Assembly (NCBI RefSeq): GCF_030013595.1
Contig: NZ_CP122768.1
Reading direction: 5' to 3' (one strand)
Origin: Escherichia coli
Lineage (GTDB): Bacteria > Pseudomonadota > Gammaproteobacteria > Enterobacterales > Enterobacteriaceae
DNA: 64,000 bases
In this document: positions 5,222-46,190 of the stretch, in pieces
How positions within the stretch are numbered: the stretch's first letter is position 1
Layout of the letters: each line of letters begins with the position of its first letter
The notes under the pieces: model-generated
What the model saw: only the letters and a program-made list of their open reading frames with translations
What the model was told of the DNA's origin: nothing
The model's database searches: none
Program-made: the position numbers and the translations under genes

Positions 5222-5806
5222 TTACTCCCTGACAGGGTTCGTAGGCCACTCAATATCAGGTGCAGTTGATGTATCAACACGGTTCAGCAACACCCGATAC
5301 TTTTTCCAGGCTTCCAGCAACGAGGTTTCTCCCTCCGTTGCGATTTCCAGATCTGCAGCATCCTGAAGTGGCGCAATATGCTCACTGGCTACCTGCATCA
5401 GGCTGTTTTTTGTTTCTTCCGCCTCCCGGATCCGGAACAGTTTTTCTGCTTCTGCATCTTTCACCCAGGTTGTGCCGTTCCACTTCTGAAACTCCCCTTC
5501 CGGGGATAACCAGGTGACATTTTCCGGTAATGAGCCGAGTTCAGAAATAAATAACGCGTCGCCGGAAGCCACGTCATAGACGGTTTTACCCCGATGGTCT
5601 TCAACGAGATGCCACGATGCCTCATCACTGTTGAAAACAGCCACAAAGCCAGCCGGAATATCTGGCGGTGCAATATCGGTACTGTTTGCTGGCAGACCTG
5701 TATGAGGCGGAATATATGCGTCACCTTCACCAATAAATTCATTAGTTCCGGCCAGCAGATTATAAATTTTTATGGTCCGTGGTTGTTCACTCATTCTGAA
5801 TGCCAT
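5222..5806 (-). CDS. tfa: Tail fiber assembly protein Tfa
   Basis: 194-aa ORF immediately downstream of stf; lambda Tfa-like sequence. Confidence 0.85.
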
Positions 5807-34000: not shown

Positions 34001-34384
34001 TTAATTAGAGTTATTAACAACGATATCCATCTCTAACCGGATATCTAATGCCATTAACATCCCTTCAATTATGCCCTCAGCCTTCTGTAACCTTTTCCCG
34101 ATATAACCATCAGAGCAGCAATGCTTACCTGCCAGTGACATGAATGTCATACCGACTACATAATAATCTACTAATAAATCGTGCAAATCGCTGTTGTTCT
34201 TTTTCAGACGGGCCATGCACCCGCAAATAATCATCGCGTCATCGTCACAACATTGCGGGCGAGATTTTACTTTTGAAGGAATTAATCCCTTAAAACCGGC
34301 GGCAATGGACGACCAGGTCACATCTTCATGATTATTAGCCGCCCACGCTCCCCAACGTTCAAGAACCATCTGAATATCACGCAT
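34001..34384 (-). CDS. Late antiterminator Q (phage-21 / DLP12 QuuD type)
   Basis: 127 aa from [18 protein letters not shown]; Cys-rich Q-like sequence. Confidence 0.85.
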
Positions 34385-34401
34385 TAACTTTCTCCACAAA
34401 A

Positions 34402-38080: not shown

Positions 38081-39022
38081 TCACCCCCTGAATCCTGCCG
38101 GGATCTGGCTGTAGTCCACGTTGTCGTAACTGGCTTTGAAGTACGGGTCTTCGCGTTTTTCGGTGTACGTGCTGACGGACGGCGATAAGCGCAGGGAAAG
38201 CTCATCCCATTTTTCCCGCAGCTTCGACGGGCTGAGCACGTTACGGCACCAGAACGGATCGCGACTGACGCGGCTGTACATCTCGCAGATTTGTTTATGA
38301 GTACGACCATCCTGCACACACATCAGGCGAATTTCGTTTGCCCAGGCTGTCCAGTTCGGTTCTTTGGGACGAACCACCTCGCCGTCACATTCGGCGGCAT
38401 GCTCGTACAGGGCGATGATTTTTTTCCAGAGCCACTGTGCGCAGGTCAAATCATCCTGCGTCCCCCACTGGCGCTTTTTAGGGCTGAATACAACCGCATC
38501 AGGATGGCGAGTTAAAAAATCCTGTTCAGCCGTCTGCGTGTCCGGTTGCGAAGAGTCCGGACGAGAAGGTTTTTTATCTGACGGATCATGTTTTGATTTT
38601 ACTGACGGATCCCCGCCAGATTCTGACGGGTGAAAACCCGCTTTTTTGCCAGATTTCGACGCATCAAATTTTGACGGGTCAGATTTTGATGCGTCAGATT
38701 TTGACGGGTCAGAATCTGACAGTTGAGAAAATGCCGCTGCCTGAAGCTTCGCAACGTTAAGCTGATAAACATTCGACGCATTGCGGTTACCCTGGCGACG
38801 CGCCTTACGCGTTAACCAGCCTTCTGCTTCCAGCCGTGCGATAGCCGTTCTGACGGTACTCATCCCCGCGCCAATCTGGCGGGCAATGGTTTCAATCGAT
38901 GGCCAGCACACACCTTCGTCATTACTGAAATCAGCCAGGCGGGCCATAATTGCCACGCTGGATAATTTCATGCCTGACGCTGCGCAACCATCCCATACAT
39001 AGCCGGTTAATTTAGTGCTCAT
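38081..39022 (-). CDS. Replication initiator protein (O-like)
   Basis: 313 aa; N-terminal HTH; repeat-encoded linker (DPSKSDASKSDPSKFDASKS) spanning the iterons. Confidence 0.75.
   Translation of the reverse strand: MSTKLTGYVWDGCAASGMKLSSVAIMARLADFSNDEGVCWPSIETIARQIGAGMSTVRTAIARLEAEGWLTRKARRQGNRNASNVYQLNVAKLQAAAFSQLSDSDPSKSDASKSDPSKFDASKSGKKAGFHPSESGGDPSVKSKHDPSDKKPSRPDSSQPDTQTAEQDFLTRHPDAVVFSPKKRQWGTQDDLTCAQWLWKKIIALYEHAAECDGEVVRPKEPNWTAWANEIRLMCVQDGRTHKQICEMYSRVSRDPFWCRNVLSPSKLREKWDELSLRLSPSVSTYTEKREDPYFKASYDNVDYSQIPAGFRG
38575..38725. repeat. Replication origin iterons inside the initiator gene
   Basis: Tandem and inverted copies of ATTTTGACGGGTCAGA / ATTTTGATGCGTCAGA. Confidence 0.7.
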
Positions 39023-40171: not shown

Positions 40172-40243
40172 ATATGTACCTCCGGTGTACATATTACATG
40201 ATTGAAATGAACCTTCAAGACACTTGTACCTTAACGGTACAAG
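40172..40243. promoter_or_regulatory. OR operator region (pR / pRM) with two palindromic operators
   Basis: atatgtac-N7-gtacatat at 40172-40194 and cttgtacc-ttaac-ggtacaag at 40223-40243, between the divergent cro and cI starts. Confidence 0.7.
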
Positions 40244-40258
40244 GGTTTTAATTTCGTT

Positions 40259-40933
40259 ATGAAAACAATCCATGACATCCGGCGGTCTAACGCCCGAAAA
40301 CTGAGAGATGGTGTTGGAGGGAATTCTTCCTTTGCCACTATGATTGATCGCGAGCCAACCCAGACCAGCAGGTTTATGGGAGATGGTGCTACTAAAAATA
40401 TCGGTGACAGCATGGCACGACACATCGAAAAATGTTTCGACCTGCCTGTCGGATGGCTCGATCAAGAACACCAGACAACGAACATCACAAAAAAACCTGA
40501 TGTTTCAATCACTAATAAACAAATCACATTAGTCCCTGTCATATCATGGGTACAGGCCGGAGCATGGAAAGAAGTTGGATATTCTGAGGTTGATTTGAGC
40601 ACAGCAGAAACGTATCCCTGCCCTGTACCCTGTGGGGAAATGACTTATATCTTGCGGGTGATAGGTGATTCAATGATTGATGAGTACCGCCCGGGAGACA
40701 TGATTTTTGTCGATCCTGAAGTACCTGCCTGCCACGGTGACGACGTTATTGCATTGATGCACGATACAGGTGAAACCACCTTCAAAAGGTTGATAGAAGA
40801 TGGGACACAGCGTTATCTCAAAGCGTTAAACCCAAACTGGCCTGAGCCTTACATTAAGATCAACGGTAATTGCTCTATAATTGGAACTGTGATTTTCTCA
40901 GGAAAACCAAGAAGATACAAAATCAAAGCCTAA
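40259..40933 (+). CDS. cI: CI-like repressor (LexA-like S24 peptidase family, e14 YmfK type)
   Basis: 224 aa; N-terminal HTH and C-terminal S24 autopeptidase domain (VIGDSM Ser motif). Confidence 0.85.
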   Translation: MKTIHDIRRSNARKLRDGVGGNSSFATMIDREPTQTSRFMGDGATKNIGDSMARHIEKCFDLPVGWLDQEHQTTNITKKPDVSITNKQITLVPVISWVQAGAWKEVGYSEVDLSTAETYPCPVPCGEMTYILRVIGDSMIDEYRPGDMIFVDPEVPACHGDDVIALMHDTGETTFKRLIEDGTQRYLKALNPNWPEPYIKINGNCSIIGTVIFSGKPRRYKIKA

Positions 40934-40945
40934 TCAATGTTTATG

Positions 40946-40969
40946 AACCTGCTTCGGCAGGTTTTTTTA
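40946..40969 (+). terminator. Intrinsic terminator after cI
   Basis: Hairpin aacctgc-ttcg-gcaggtt followed by ttttttt. Confidence 0.75.
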
Positions 40970-40972
40970 TAC

Positions 40973-41000
40973 TTGACAATGTACCCACGAGATACATAAT
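40973..41000 (+). promoter_or_regulatory. Candidate pL-like sigma70 promoter with operator-like TGTACCC repeats
   Basis: TTGACA, 16-nt spacer, CATAAT; two direct copies of AATGTACCCA overlapping it. Confidence 0.45.
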
Positions 41001-41083
41001 GTACCCAAGAGAAACAACAAACAGGCAGGACGCCCACGAAGTAGCCGCCTGGGGCATATGAAGTCCAGGATGATTCGTTAGCA

Positions 41084-41108
41084 ACAAAAAAGCGCCCTAC
41101 AGGACGCT
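41084..41108 (-). terminator. Intrinsic terminator downstream of the immunity-region gene
   Basis: Hairpin agcgccct-ac-aggacgct with a U-run on the minus strand. Confidence 0.5.
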
Positions 41109-41147
41109 TAGCTCTTTAACAATCTGGATATCCACAACAGTAGTAAT

Positions 41148-41639
41148 CTACAGATTGCCGTTAAGTTTTCTGGACAACTCCTCAATGGATGGAGGCGATA
41201 CGTAATCCGGATTTTTATTCATCAGAAACTTATTTTCACAGTGGAGGCACCTGCTTTTATGAAAAAGCTCATCTTCGCTAACCGGGAATGGTTGAAGTAT
41301 CGATACTATCTTTTGTCCAAAACATTTTGGGCAAAGATGCATGGTTATGCTGCCACCGTTCACGATTACCTCCTTCGAGTATACAAAAGTACCCGACTCA
41401 AGTTGGTTAAGGATATAGCCTTCCGTCTGAGCCTCAAAGTTTTCGAATTCTGCAATTTTAGCTTTGAGAGAAGCATTTATTTCTTGATAAGAGCCCACCA
41501 GTTCAACGAGAGACACGCATTCGCGCTGAATAGACGCAAGCTTTGAGTTCAGCTCACCAATAGCCGCATTTACTTCAGCTTGAGTTTTTGCCTCGTTCAT
41601 TAGTTTTGCAATCTGGGCTGTTTCACGAATAGCCGTCAT
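41148..41639 (-). CDS. Coiled-coil / zinc-ribbon protein of unknown function (rex-equivalent position)
   Basis: 163 aa from ATG at 41639; predicted N-terminal coiled coil; C-terminal CPKC..CLHC; opposite strand to cI and the early operon. Confidence 0.6.
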   Translation of the reverse strand: MTAIRETAQIAKLMNEAKTQAEVNAAIGELNSKLASIQRECVSLVELVGSYQEINASLKAKIAEFENFEAQTEGYILNQLESGTFVYSKEVIVNGGSITMHLCPKCFGQKIVSILQPFPVSEDELFHKSRCLHCENKFLMNKNPDYVSPPSIEELSRKLNGNL

Positions 41640-41677
41640 TGCTGCCGTTAATTCAGCGATCACATTGAATACTCTTA

Positions 41678-41723
41678 TTGTTGTTGGGGATATCCAGATT
41701 AACCGAATCCTTGTTGTTGGGGA
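41678..41723. repeat. Two 13-bp direct repeats TTGTTGTTGGGGA, 33 bp apart
   Basis: Exact copies at 41678-41690 and 41711-41723, 39-85 bp upstream of the start codon at 41639. Confidence 0.8.
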
Positions 41724-41950
41724 ATAACCAGGTCCACCTCGCCTGATGTGGCTAAAAGCAGGCACATAACAGCTAAGTATTTTCAACCAGAGAGAATCCT
41801 TAGCGTTGTGGTGAATGCGGCTCAGCGCACGCGGGTTAAGGTTGAGGCTGACAGTCGACCTTCTGTGGATACCCACCCGCCTGGTGTGCAACCTTCGCCA
41901 GGCACCGGGAGGCACCCGGCACCACAACTTTATGCTGTGTGTAGTCCTGG

Positions 41951-41996
41951 CGGTACCAGTTTGTACCCTTGCTTCCGGCTGGTACCGTCCTTTTTT
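41951..41996 (+). terminator. Intrinsic terminator in the early leader (tL-like)
   Basis: 9-bp stem cggtaccag / ctggtaccg with 19-nt loop, followed by tttttt; the stem contains operator-like GGTACC/TGTACC motifs. Confidence 0.55.
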
Positions 41997-42085
41997 GCAA
42001 AACAGAGAAGAGCATCACCGGACGACGGGCTCATAACCCAATCCATCCGGGCGGCTGCCACCGCAGGTGTTCTTCTCTGTTTTGT
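41997..42085 (+). ncRNA. Long stem-loop element in the early-operon 5' leader
   Basis: 13-bp perfect inverted repeat aaaacagagaaga / tcttctctgtttt (41999-42011, 42071-42083), extendable with G-U pairs, enclosing a 59-nt GC-rich interior; 49 nt upstream of the yfdP-like start. Confidence 0.4.
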
Positions 42086-42133
42086 GGAGAAACCAACCGA
42101 CCTTGCAGGGTCGATATGATGAGGAGCAGCAAA

Positions 42134-42496
42134 ATGGCTAGCGAACGCAGTACTGATGTGCAGGCATTTATCGGGGAGCTGGACGGCGGCGTATTTGAAA
42201 CCAAAATCGGCGCAGTTCTCAGTGAGGTCGCTTCCGGTGTGATGAACACGAAAACCAAAGGGAAGGTCTCACTCAATCTGGAAATCGAACCGTTTGATGA
42301 GAACCGTGTGAAAATCAAACACAAACTCTCATATGTTCGCCCAACTAACCGCGGGAAAATTTCCGAAGAAGACACCACCGAAACGCCGATGTATGTCAAT
42401 CGCGGTGGTCGCCTGACTATTCTGCAGGAAGACCAGGGACAATTACTGACTCTTGCCGGTGAACCTGACGGAAAACTCCGCGCAGCAGGTCGTTAA
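42134..42496 (+). CDS. YfdP-like early protein
   Basis: 120 aa from ATG at 42134 with AGGAG RBS; CPS-53 yfdP-like. Confidence 0.75.
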   Translation: MASERSTDVQAFIGELDGGVFETKIGAVLSEVASGVMNTKTKGKVSLNLEIEPFDENRVKIKHKLSYVRPTNRGKISEEDTTETPMYVNRGGRLTILQEDQGQLLTLAGEPDGKLRAAGR

Positions 42497-42561
42497 TATC
42501 GTTCGTAATAAACTGATTATTTATCTCATCACTGAATATCTTTATATAGTGAGGACTTATT

Positions 42562-43386
42562 ATGTCTCAGAACTTAGACGCAACCGCAATTAATCAAATC
42601 CATGCCCTTATTTCTGCTCAGAGTGTTAATGAAATTATCAGTAAGATTGGTGCCGATGCTGTGGCATTGCCTGAGAATTTCCGCATTCATGATCTGGAAA
42701 AATTTAATTTAAATCGCTTCCGTTTCCGTGGTGCACTTTCCACTGCCAGCATCGATGATTTTACCCGTTATTCTAAAGATCTTGCAGATGAAGGCACCCG
42801 CTGCTTTATCGATGCCGATAATATGCGTGCCGTCAGTGTGCTTAACCTGGGTACTATTGATGAGCCAGGTCACGCAGATAACACTGCCACTCTCAAACTG
42901 AAAAAGACAGCACCGTTCTCTGCTCTGTTGTCTGTTAACGGCGAGCGTAACTCCCAGAAGTCACTGGCAGAATGGATCGAAGACTGGGCCGACTACCTTG
43001 TGGGCTTTGATGCTAATGGTGACGCCATTCAAGCAACAAAAGCGGCTGCGGCAGTCCGTAAAATCACGATTGAAGCAAACCATACCGCTGATTTTGAAGA
43101 TAATGACTTCAGCGGCAAACGCTCCCTGATGGAGTCTGTCGAAGCGAAGACCAAAGACATTATGCCAGTGGCATTTGAATTTAAATGCGTTCCGTTTGAA
43201 GGTCTGAAAGAACGTCCGTTTAAATTACGCCTCAGCATTATCACTGGCGATCGTCCTGTACTGGTTCTGCGCATTATTCAGCTGGAAGCGGTGCAGGAAG
43301 AAATGGCTAACGAATTTCGTGATCTGCTTGTTGAGAAATTCAAAGACAGCAAAGTAGAAACCTTTATTGGTACTTTCACCGCCTGA
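42562..43386 (+). CDS. YfdQ-like protein (DUF2303)
   Basis: 274-aa ORF, CPS-53 yfdQ-like. Confidence 0.8.
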
Positions 43387-46113: not shown

Positions 46114-46190
46114 TGGCGCGCCCTGCAGGATTCGAACCTGCGGCCCACGACTTAGAAGGTCGTTGCTCTATCCAACTGAGCTAAGGGCGC
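46114..46190 (-). tRNA. argU: tRNA-Arg (UCU) argU
   Basis: Reverse complement gcgcccttagctcagttggatagagcaacgaccttctaagtcgtgggccgcaggttcgaatcctgcagggcgcgcca is a cloverleaf with anticodon TCT and terminal CCA. Confidence 0.9.

Follow-up and report, generated by a model that had tools for sequence, protein, structure and literature searches.

Lambdoid operons can give rise to terminated-leader RNAs, of which the lambda 6S RNA (PR'-tR') and StxS of the Stx phages are examples. STnc100 and PasD are related prophage-borne small RNAs (sRNAs) (bioRxiv 10.64898/2026.05.13.724894); EDL933 carries 11 transcribed STnc100 copies, one of them confirmed by Northern blot (PMC5331693), and PasD is Hfq-dependent and has partners recovered by RIL-seq (PMC8550237). 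The current study concerns positions 41740-42133 of a 64,000-nucleotide (nt) stretch of Escherichia coli DNA (RefSeq assembly GCF_030013595.1, contig NZ_CP122768.1; hereafter, the window), in which a lambdoid prophage of the SfV/SfIV/SfII/ST64B/e14 group adjoins the tRNA-Arg(UCU) gene (46117-46190). Comparisons of sequence and covariation show 41806-41928 to be a divergent, promoter-less member of the STnc100/PasD prophage sRNA superfamily. We refer to canonical members as type 1 and to members such as that of the window as type 2. This known RNA family, in a subtype and a context that are both new, largely accounts for the segment 41740-42133, together with a conserved structure within the 5' untranslated region (5'-UTR) of the gene that follows.

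The full Rfam STnc100 model (RF02076) matches 41775-41998 with 40.3 bits (E = 5e-6), a score that does not reach the gathering score of 47. On the same model the copy in phage ST64B obtains 35.1 bits, and the four canonical relatives tested obtain 50-132 bits, all reaching the gathering score. Additional family loci were fetched by an exact 20-nt motif taken from the Rfam match, CCGGGAGGCACCCGGCACCA (window 41905-41924), which occurs in at least 120 IMG/VR prophage loci and is immediately preceded by a hairpin that is highly variable in sequence, but always self-complementary. The fetched loci were clustered, and 22 representatives, among them the window copy, served to build our own covariance model, R1; this model assigns the window a single copy, at 41806-41928, with 82.9 bits. 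Among 46 distinct aligned members, P1, P2, P4 and P5 are held in common, 82.9% of cells pair, and covariation amounts to 0.324, compared with 0.129 for shuffles (0 of 500) and at most 0.127 for slid controls. Compensatory changes are evident even in P1, P2 and P5 of distant members. In the window, P1 joins 41805-41813 with 41920-41928, P4 joins 41879-41886 with 41896-41903, and P5 joins 41905-41909 with 41915-41919. A pseudoknot, which is our own observation and not part of the Rfam structure, pairs AAGGUUG (41838-41844), located right after P2, with CAACCUU in the P4 loop (41889-41895). In a permutation test, self pairing of these strands averaged 6.5 bp versus 4.7 bp for cross pairing (0 of 20,000), and all 7 pairs exhibit compensatory changes. 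Since frequent G-U pairs make the structure strand-specific, the RNA is that of the plus strand.

The initial annotation, which was made from the sequence alone, had described 41740-42133 as a GC-rich, structured and non-coding stretch, and its description agrees with the GC profile, the folding and the coding comparisons given further below. GC content is 0.53-0.585 over 41700-42100, as opposed to 0.41-0.44 nearer to cI (41100-41800) and 0.37-0.43 past yfdP (42400-42800). For 41760-42140, the folding energy is -163 kcal/mol (z = -6.3), which none of 100 shuffles matched. It had also recognized a plus-strand intrinsic terminator at 41951-41996 and an extended hairpin with a 13-bp perfect inverted repeat 49 nt before the yfdP-like start, both of which are found at essentially these positions (Table 1). 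Likewise, structural conservation is present in homologous prophages, as both the terminator and the long hairpin are retained there with compensatory changes. Among the options it had offered, a small RNA ending at the terminator is now the best fit, given that an STnc100/PasD member sits just upstream of that terminator.

The terminator begins 20 nt past P1, and its stem is formed by GGCGGUACCAG (41949-41959) with CUGGUACCGUC (41979-41989), followed by U6 at 41991-41996; a simple terminator scanner missed it because of its 19-nt loop. A hairpin plus U-tract occupies the same position in ST64B, e14, locus L240 and IMG/VR variants, although the stem sequences differ, that of ST64B being GUCGGCGUC.../...GACGCCGAC. 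In the linker between core and terminator, the motif GCUGUGUG(U/A)AGUC is kept in ST64B, e14 and L240. The hairpin directly before the core has a different counterpart at this position in ST64B (GAUAAGAGUU...AACUCUUAUC). As a separate observation, ST64B (locus L002, 5160-5353), L197 and L240 possess an enlarged terminator loop containing a strong Shine-Dalgarno (SD) sequence (AGGAGG) together with GTG or ATG, and the frame opened there crosses the long hairpin and stops at the SD of yfdP; between phages, this frame shifts with the T-tract, which is 5 or 6 long. The terminator loop of the window is without an SD and start of the ST64B type.

The long hairpin downstream of the terminator has arms of 24 nt (41998-42021 and 42061-42084) that are 83% complementary and include the 13-bp perfect core CAAAACAGAGAAG/CUUCUCUGUUUUG. 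Folded alone, it reaches -51 kcal/mol (z = -6.5). Its end is separated from the ATG at 42134 by 49 nt, and its stem can extend over the terminator U-tract (41991-42091, ~26 bp). Compensatory changes affect both the stem (GAGAAG/CUUCUC, GAAAAG/CUUUUC, GACAAG/CUUGUC) and the inner hairpins, which change in pairs (GCGG/CCGC versus GCUG/CAGC) around a conserved GGGCUCAUAACCCAAUCCA. It has no Rfam match. The predicted duplex would be long enough for RNase III. The small hairpin that follows is replaced in ST64B and L240 by UGGCGGU..ACCGCCA. The 5'-UTR of the yfdP-like gene has a conserved structure of its own at 41998-42114, and it is possible that the riboregulator considered in the initial annotation applies to the long hairpin within it.

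Table 1. Features of the early-left leader and its surroundings (window positions unless a locus is named; L234 is phage Ayreon and L233 is phiSTEC1575).
Feature	Position	Strand	Remarks
cI-like repressor	40259-40933		its terminator at 40945-40964
PL candidate	40973-41000	+	TTGACA-16-CATAAT, 11/12 consensus matches, directly 3' of the cI terminator
Element A, conserved structured RNA	41013-41084	+	~70 nt; starts ~10-25 nt past the PL -10
rrn-type boxA	41111-41122	+	GCUCUUUAACAA; preceded by a hairpin at 41090-41109
Minus-strand moron between PL and the yfdP-like gene	41148-41639	-	phrog_1244
5' hairpin directly before the core	41772-41804	+	arms GCUAAGUAUUUUC / GAGAAUCCUUAGC; inverted repeat, z = -4.6
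Type-2 STnc100/PasD core	41806-41928	+	123 nt, five helices, pseudoknotted; from Rfam, own model R1 and covariation
Swap-site homologues of window 41805-41928	L234 3370-3490; L233 3368-3489; L240; L197
GU-rich single-stranded linker	41929-41948	+	UUUAUGCUGUGUGUAGUCCU; unpaired in the fold
Intrinsic terminator	41949-41996	+	11-bp GC-rich stem, 19-nt loop, U6 tract
Conserved long hairpin with internal branches (module C)	41998-42084	+	from fold and compensatory changes
Small hairpin CGACCUUGCAGGGUCG	42099-42114	+	just before the ribosome-binding site; from fold
yfdP-like ribosome-binding site and start	42121-42136	+	SD GAGGAG 42121-42126, ATG 42134; opens the early-left operon

The plus strand of the window corresponds to the leftward direction of the prophage. 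Its PL candidate is overlapped by the operator TGTACCCACGAGATACA (40980-40996), which has the form TGTACC-N5-GGTACA, as do the two right-operator (OR) sites (40175-40191 and 40225-40241). Phage Ayreon shares this immunity region, and the same terminator and promoter are annotated there. The GTAC-containing stem of the intrinsic terminator was also considered as an operator; it resembles the half-sites, but does not fit TGTACC-N5-GGTACA. From PL, transcription would start at about 41007, and the first plus-strand gene thereafter is the yfdP-like gene (phrog_204, E = 1e-49). The initial annotation had regarded the GC-rich segment as the leader of the early operon. It does lie before the yfdP-like gene, but PL, ~0.8 kb upstream, had been missed, and the segment is therefore the distal part: the PL leader, untranslated and modular, measures ~1.13 kb, of which 41740-42133 is the last third and not the promoter-proximal portion, and the structured elements from the core to the long hairpin lie ~0.8-1.1 kb into this leader. 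The interval between PL and the minus-strand moron holds just a 7-codon open reading frame (ORF). Two copies of the direct repeat TTGTTGTTGGGG, at a distance of 33 nt, lie at 41672-41722, just upstream of the moron start (41639), and may form a regulatory site for the moron. A PHROG scan of 20 early ORFs identified CI, Cro-like, CII-like, O-like and Q-like proteins. No N-like protein was found among these ORFs, the sole antitermination match being the Q-like protein (34001-34399, minus strand), and the lack of an N-like antiterminator ORF reported by the initial annotation is borne out.

At the 5' end of the leader, element A contains a core, ACGCCCACGAAGUAGCC, a 17-mer present in at least 120 IMG/VR loci and found by BLAST in 51 phage records. 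Its carriers include SfV, SfII, SfIV, ST64B, ZF40, YeP1-3, mEp237, SPN3UB, SEN34 and Klebsiella and Aeromonas phages, as well as e14, and the hosts of the phage records span Escherichia, Shigella, Salmonella, Klebsiella, Yersinia, Pectobacterium, Pantoea and Aeromonas. Element A is always located downstream of promoters, which are associated with several different operator types. A second covariance model, R2, scores 88.9 bits on the window, and RNAalifold detects compensatory changes in 9 of 15 pairs. R2 identifies a single copy in each phage, L192 being the only, weak exception, and no second copy was found in the PR operon; there is no Rfam match. In some loci, element A is followed by an ORF with an arginine-rich N-terminus (MNAAQRRKAYRK...). 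The boxA farther downstream (GCTCTTTAACAA, 41111-41122) is unique in the window, with 0.01 occurrences expected by chance, and matches the rrn boxA, which we take to be UGCUCUUUAACAA. Its motif is present in 34 of the 309 fetched loci and lies ~26 nt after element A in the four that were checked. The boxA sequences of rrn operons and nut sites act with Nus factors and protect from Rho. By analogy, the boxA of the window suggests that Nus factors may protect the long untranslated PL leader from Rho, although boxA alone does not explain passage of the intrinsic terminator.

The closing stem of the core behaves like a site at which whole interiors are exchanged. Among phages that share its flanks (linker or terminator, long hairpin and yfdP), such as Ayreon, phiSTEC1575, mEp460 and Stx2c phages, a similar closing stem (GUUGUGGU...ACCACAAC) encloses at least four further interiors that are mutually unrelated. 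The phiSTEC1575 interior is a weak relative by model R1 (21 bits) and that of Ayreon is unrecognized. This makes the STnc100-like domain one cassette among several alternatives, and since sister phages carry unrelated interiors in the same flanks, the core must be dispensable for expression of the early-left operon. The leaders of these phages also vary near PL: in Ayreon, Stx2c, mEp460 and cdtI phages, element A is replaced by a different GC-rich PL-proximal module (Ayreon L234 3125-3302), which is ~78% identical to the intergenic region between trnI (tRNA-Ile) and ban of P1/P7 (P1 NC_005856 71010-71194).

Canonical members differ from type 2 in both their signals and their surroundings. Reading by eye, we recognized in most type-1 relatives a TTGAC(A/C/T)-type -35 followed ~17 nt on by a -10-like hexamer, just upstream of P1, which would put the start a few nt before P1, and most members continue into an A/U-rich linker and then a terminator. 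Type-1 members belong to the late region, with Q-like genes (three PHROG families) 180-260 nt upstream. Between Q and the type-1 promoter there are terminator-like hairpins with U-tracts, preceded in one locus by a promoter-like stretch, and downstream lie a holin (~290 nt) or morons, such as a 653-residue protein of PHROG family 143, which has no assigned function. In view of their own promoter, their linker and terminator, and their position past the Q-side terminators, type-1 members are self-contained sRNA genes, which accords with the published data on STnc100 and PasD (PMC5331693, PMC8550237). An analogy of canonical STnc100 with 6S, as a leader of PR', was rejected, as terminator-like hairpins separate Q from the element's own promoter; canonical STnc100 looks like a moron-like unit downstream of tR'. 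Besides the window, SfIV, SfV, ST64B, e14 and a few IMG/VR loci have a type-2 copy. In the SfIV, ST64B and e14 leaders and in locus L115, this copy lies between cI and the early-left genes; its neighbours are different in two other loci. No sigma-70 promoter-like site was found near 41700-41810 of the window, where there is a hairpin instead.

Based upon these features, we favor the following reading, to which we assign a probability of roughly 60%: 41772-41996 is a type-2 STnc100/PasD sRNA of the PL leader that is freed by partial termination, and the long hairpin is a separate element. Upon loss of the CI-type repressor, PL would fire at ~41007, and RNA polymerase would cross element A, boxA and the antisense of the minus-strand moron before making the core. 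A fraction of the complexes would then stop at 41991-41996 and release the RNA, which would presumably be processed to a stable 3' product comprising the core, the terminator hairpin and the U-tail. This is an architecture of the Hfq-class sRNAs, and Hfq binding and targets would be expected for such an RNA. The remaining complexes would read through, so that yfdP through xis and int are expressed, and in the resulting mRNA the long hairpin would act in turn, for instance by offering RNase III a cleavage site or by occluding the ribosome-binding site. In a hupAB mutant in which e14 is SOS-derepressed, xisE, which lies past the terminator, is up 34-fold and ymfJ, which lies before it, is up 41-fold (PMC2634741); because the two rise to similar levels, read-through evidently occurs in e14.

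Several considerations weigh against this reading. The transcript evidence covers canonical copies and type 2 is known from sequence; moreover, the Rfam score is below the gathering threshold and P2 is unlike that of canonical members. A pseudoknotted junction combined with a near-universal 20-nt motif, albeit in loci that were fetched by that motif, is unusual for a base-pairing sRNA and points to a specific binding partner. Sister phages with these flanks have unrelated sequences in place of the interior, whose function is therefore not essential for expression of the early-left operon. Convincing target complementarity for the RNA was not found in the early region, where only chance-level 9-mers occur. 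Lastly, the 19-nt terminator loop may make termination weak.

The complexity of the core could alternatively reflect a role in cis, as a sensor or platform for a protein, RNA polymerase or a ligand, in which case the core would set the share of transcription passing the terminator 20 nt downstream and would gate yfdP through int in the manner of an attenuator or riboswitch. Such a gate would accommodate the complex fold, the near-universal 20-nt motif and the covarying pseudoknot, as in aptamers, as well as the position of the core directly before a conserved terminator in every variant; in the window, the 3' strand of P4 (CGCCAGG) is complementary to CCUGGCG at the terminator foot. However, by our reading this pairing is not kept in ST64B and has no equivalent in the sole canonical member inspected (L096), the canonical linkers are long, A/U-rich and sRNA-like, and sister phages have unrelated sequences in place of the interior, which leaves the gate an unlikely explanation. 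It is quite unlikely, too, that the core is an independent sRNA gene with a weak promoter of its own, expressed in the lysogen as a moron within the PL leader. Although most canonical members are self-contained promoter-RNA-terminator units and the block from ~41735 onward is conserved with e14, there is no acceptable -35/-10 pair upstream of the window copy, the best candidate by eye (CTGATG-16-CATAAC) being without the key final T, and the type-2 relatives checked (L092, L115, L030, L029, L025 and L008) have upstream hairpins or, in one, a terminator rather than a promoter. Furthermore, Reg-Seq of the intE-xisE-ymfH unit of K-12 e14 detected a transcription start site only with gentamicin, in 1 of 2 replicates (PMC12133099), so a start for the ymfH unit is seen under a single stress condition.

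A put-like RNA of the HK022 kind, which would render RNA polymerase terminator-resistant in cis, was the first idea offered by the initial annotation. It is in keeping with the lack of an N gene, with the location of the core just upstream of a terminator that must be passed, and with the read-through seen in e14 (PMC2634741), but we found no support for it. When putL was reconstructed from a published HK022 primer, BLAST returned 21 records, including HK022, HK75, O276, APC_JM3.2, phiEt88, HK639 and a few Salmonella, Enterobacter and Pantoea phages; SfV, ST64B and e14-type phages are not among these relatives, and the core has no sequence relation to the put family. Short strings in common with put (GGGUUCAG, CAGGAUGA) are structurally inconsistent. 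The core has a five-helix pseudoknotted fold as opposed to the two stems of put, lies ~800 nt from the promoter rather than next to it, exists as a single copy with no second one in the PR operon according to model R1, and is not conserved among sister phages that have the same terminator. Canonical relatives evidently terminate, as they accumulate as short RNAs (PMC5331693). We consider a put-like role highly improbable. Less credible still is a protein-coding function, either as a YmfH homologue (41748-42119) or as a leader peptide. A 123-codon ORF is indeed open at 41748-42119, its e14 counterpart is annotated in K-12 as ymfH, and the enlarged loop of ST64B and L197 offers a strong SD and start for a frame ending at the yfdP SD. 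Nevertheless, the window and e14 translations are separated by an internal frameshift, the long ORF is absent from the homologous leaders of Ayreon and phiSTEC1575, the variable columns in the long hairpin are distributed 8/11/9 across codon positions without codon periodicity, and the helices change by compensatory and G-U substitutions. On these grounds, 41740-42133 is judged to be non-coding, and for the ST64B-type frame the window has neither an SD nor a start codon. ymfH (b1142; L124 3383-3694 in E. coli K-12 e14) overlies the STnc100-like core, terminator and long hairpin of e14 and appears to be a spurious ORF over RNA. The e14 copy of the leader is itself slightly decayed, having lost 1 nt in the P5 loop, one P5 pair and the yfdP-yfdT genes.

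The consequences extend beyond the window. A whole subtype of a common prophage RNA family escapes annotation, since it scores below the Rfam threshold, and in K-12 it has been annotated instead as a protein gene, ymfH. The covarying pseudoknot and the near-universal 20-nt motif raise the question of the binding partner of the RNA. It is also now evident that the early-left leader of N-less lambdoid phages (SfV, SfIV, ST64B and e14) can be mapped as a chain of conserved RNA modules, in the order element A, boxA, a swappable stem-closed cassette, terminator and long hairpin, and this wider architecture is the more novel lead. One could imagine that the STnc100 fold is less a base-pairing sRNA than a conserved aptamer-like domain for a host factor or ligand, which in this phage group forms a checkpoint with the terminator and, together with element A and boxA, constitutes an N-independent RNA control of the early-left operon; we would not expect this to be the case, but within such a scheme, element A would possibly be a new class of cis antiterminator or factor-loading RNA. 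As e14 contains a decayed copy of the leader, N-independent passage of the terminator is directly testable in K-12.

Several other features were encountered during these analyses. Repeats at 38647-38721 of the window, within the O-like replication gene, encode DPSKSDASKSDPSKFDASKS, produce spurious miRNA matches on both strands and probably contain origin iterons. A full-length IS009 RNA (RF02111, 225.7 bits) is located elsewhere in the window, at 5265-5463 on the minus strand. On the PR side of phiSTEC1575 (L233 835-1036) and Ayreon (L234 914-1115), the minus strand carries genuine C4 antisense RNA, isrK and a1b1 target modules, which are absent from the window.

When the leader is compared with described systems, partial parallels are found with several of them. 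As in lambda nutL and the RNase III hairpin of the N leader, there is a boxA and a long duplex just before the first early-left gene; unlike lambda nutL, there is no N protein or recognized boxB, and the boxA, which resembles that of rrn operons, falls outside 41740-42133. The C4 RNAs of P1/P7 and the CI RNA of P4 (RF01695) are similarly stable, leader-embedded RNAs closed by a GGUG...CACC-type stem, but self-targeting of the C4/CI type was rejected, as there is no Rfam C4 match (E up to 10) and no complementarity of at least 10 nt in the early region. HK022 putL and putR, whose antitermination in cis depends on the beta' zinc-binding domain, are likewise structured RNAs in the early leader of an N-less lambdoid phage, whereas the core of the window is without similarity to them in sequence or fold, is not promoter-proximal and is present once. 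Element A does occupy a put-like position, but its sequence is unrelated and it has no PR copy. With lambda 6S and StxS, the proposed RNA would share its origin as a short RNA from a stop at the first terminator of an otherwise read-through operon; theirs is a late promoter under Q, whereas that of the window is PL, with no known antiterminator protein and with a conserved complex fold in the RNA. Relative to STnc100 (RF02076) and PasD, the window copy falls below the Rfam gathering threshold, is without its own promoter, has GCGGCUCAGCGCACGC as P2 instead of the canonical CCCCCUGUGCGGAGGGG, and is flanked by cI and the early-left genes, where canonical copies have Q/tR' and the lysis genes. 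Despite this, it has the same P1, P4 and P5, the same 5' motif UGGUGAAU and 3' motif ACCGGGAGGCACCCGGCACCA, and the same pseudoknot, and, like these RNAs, it is prophage-borne and followed by a linker and an intrinsic terminator.

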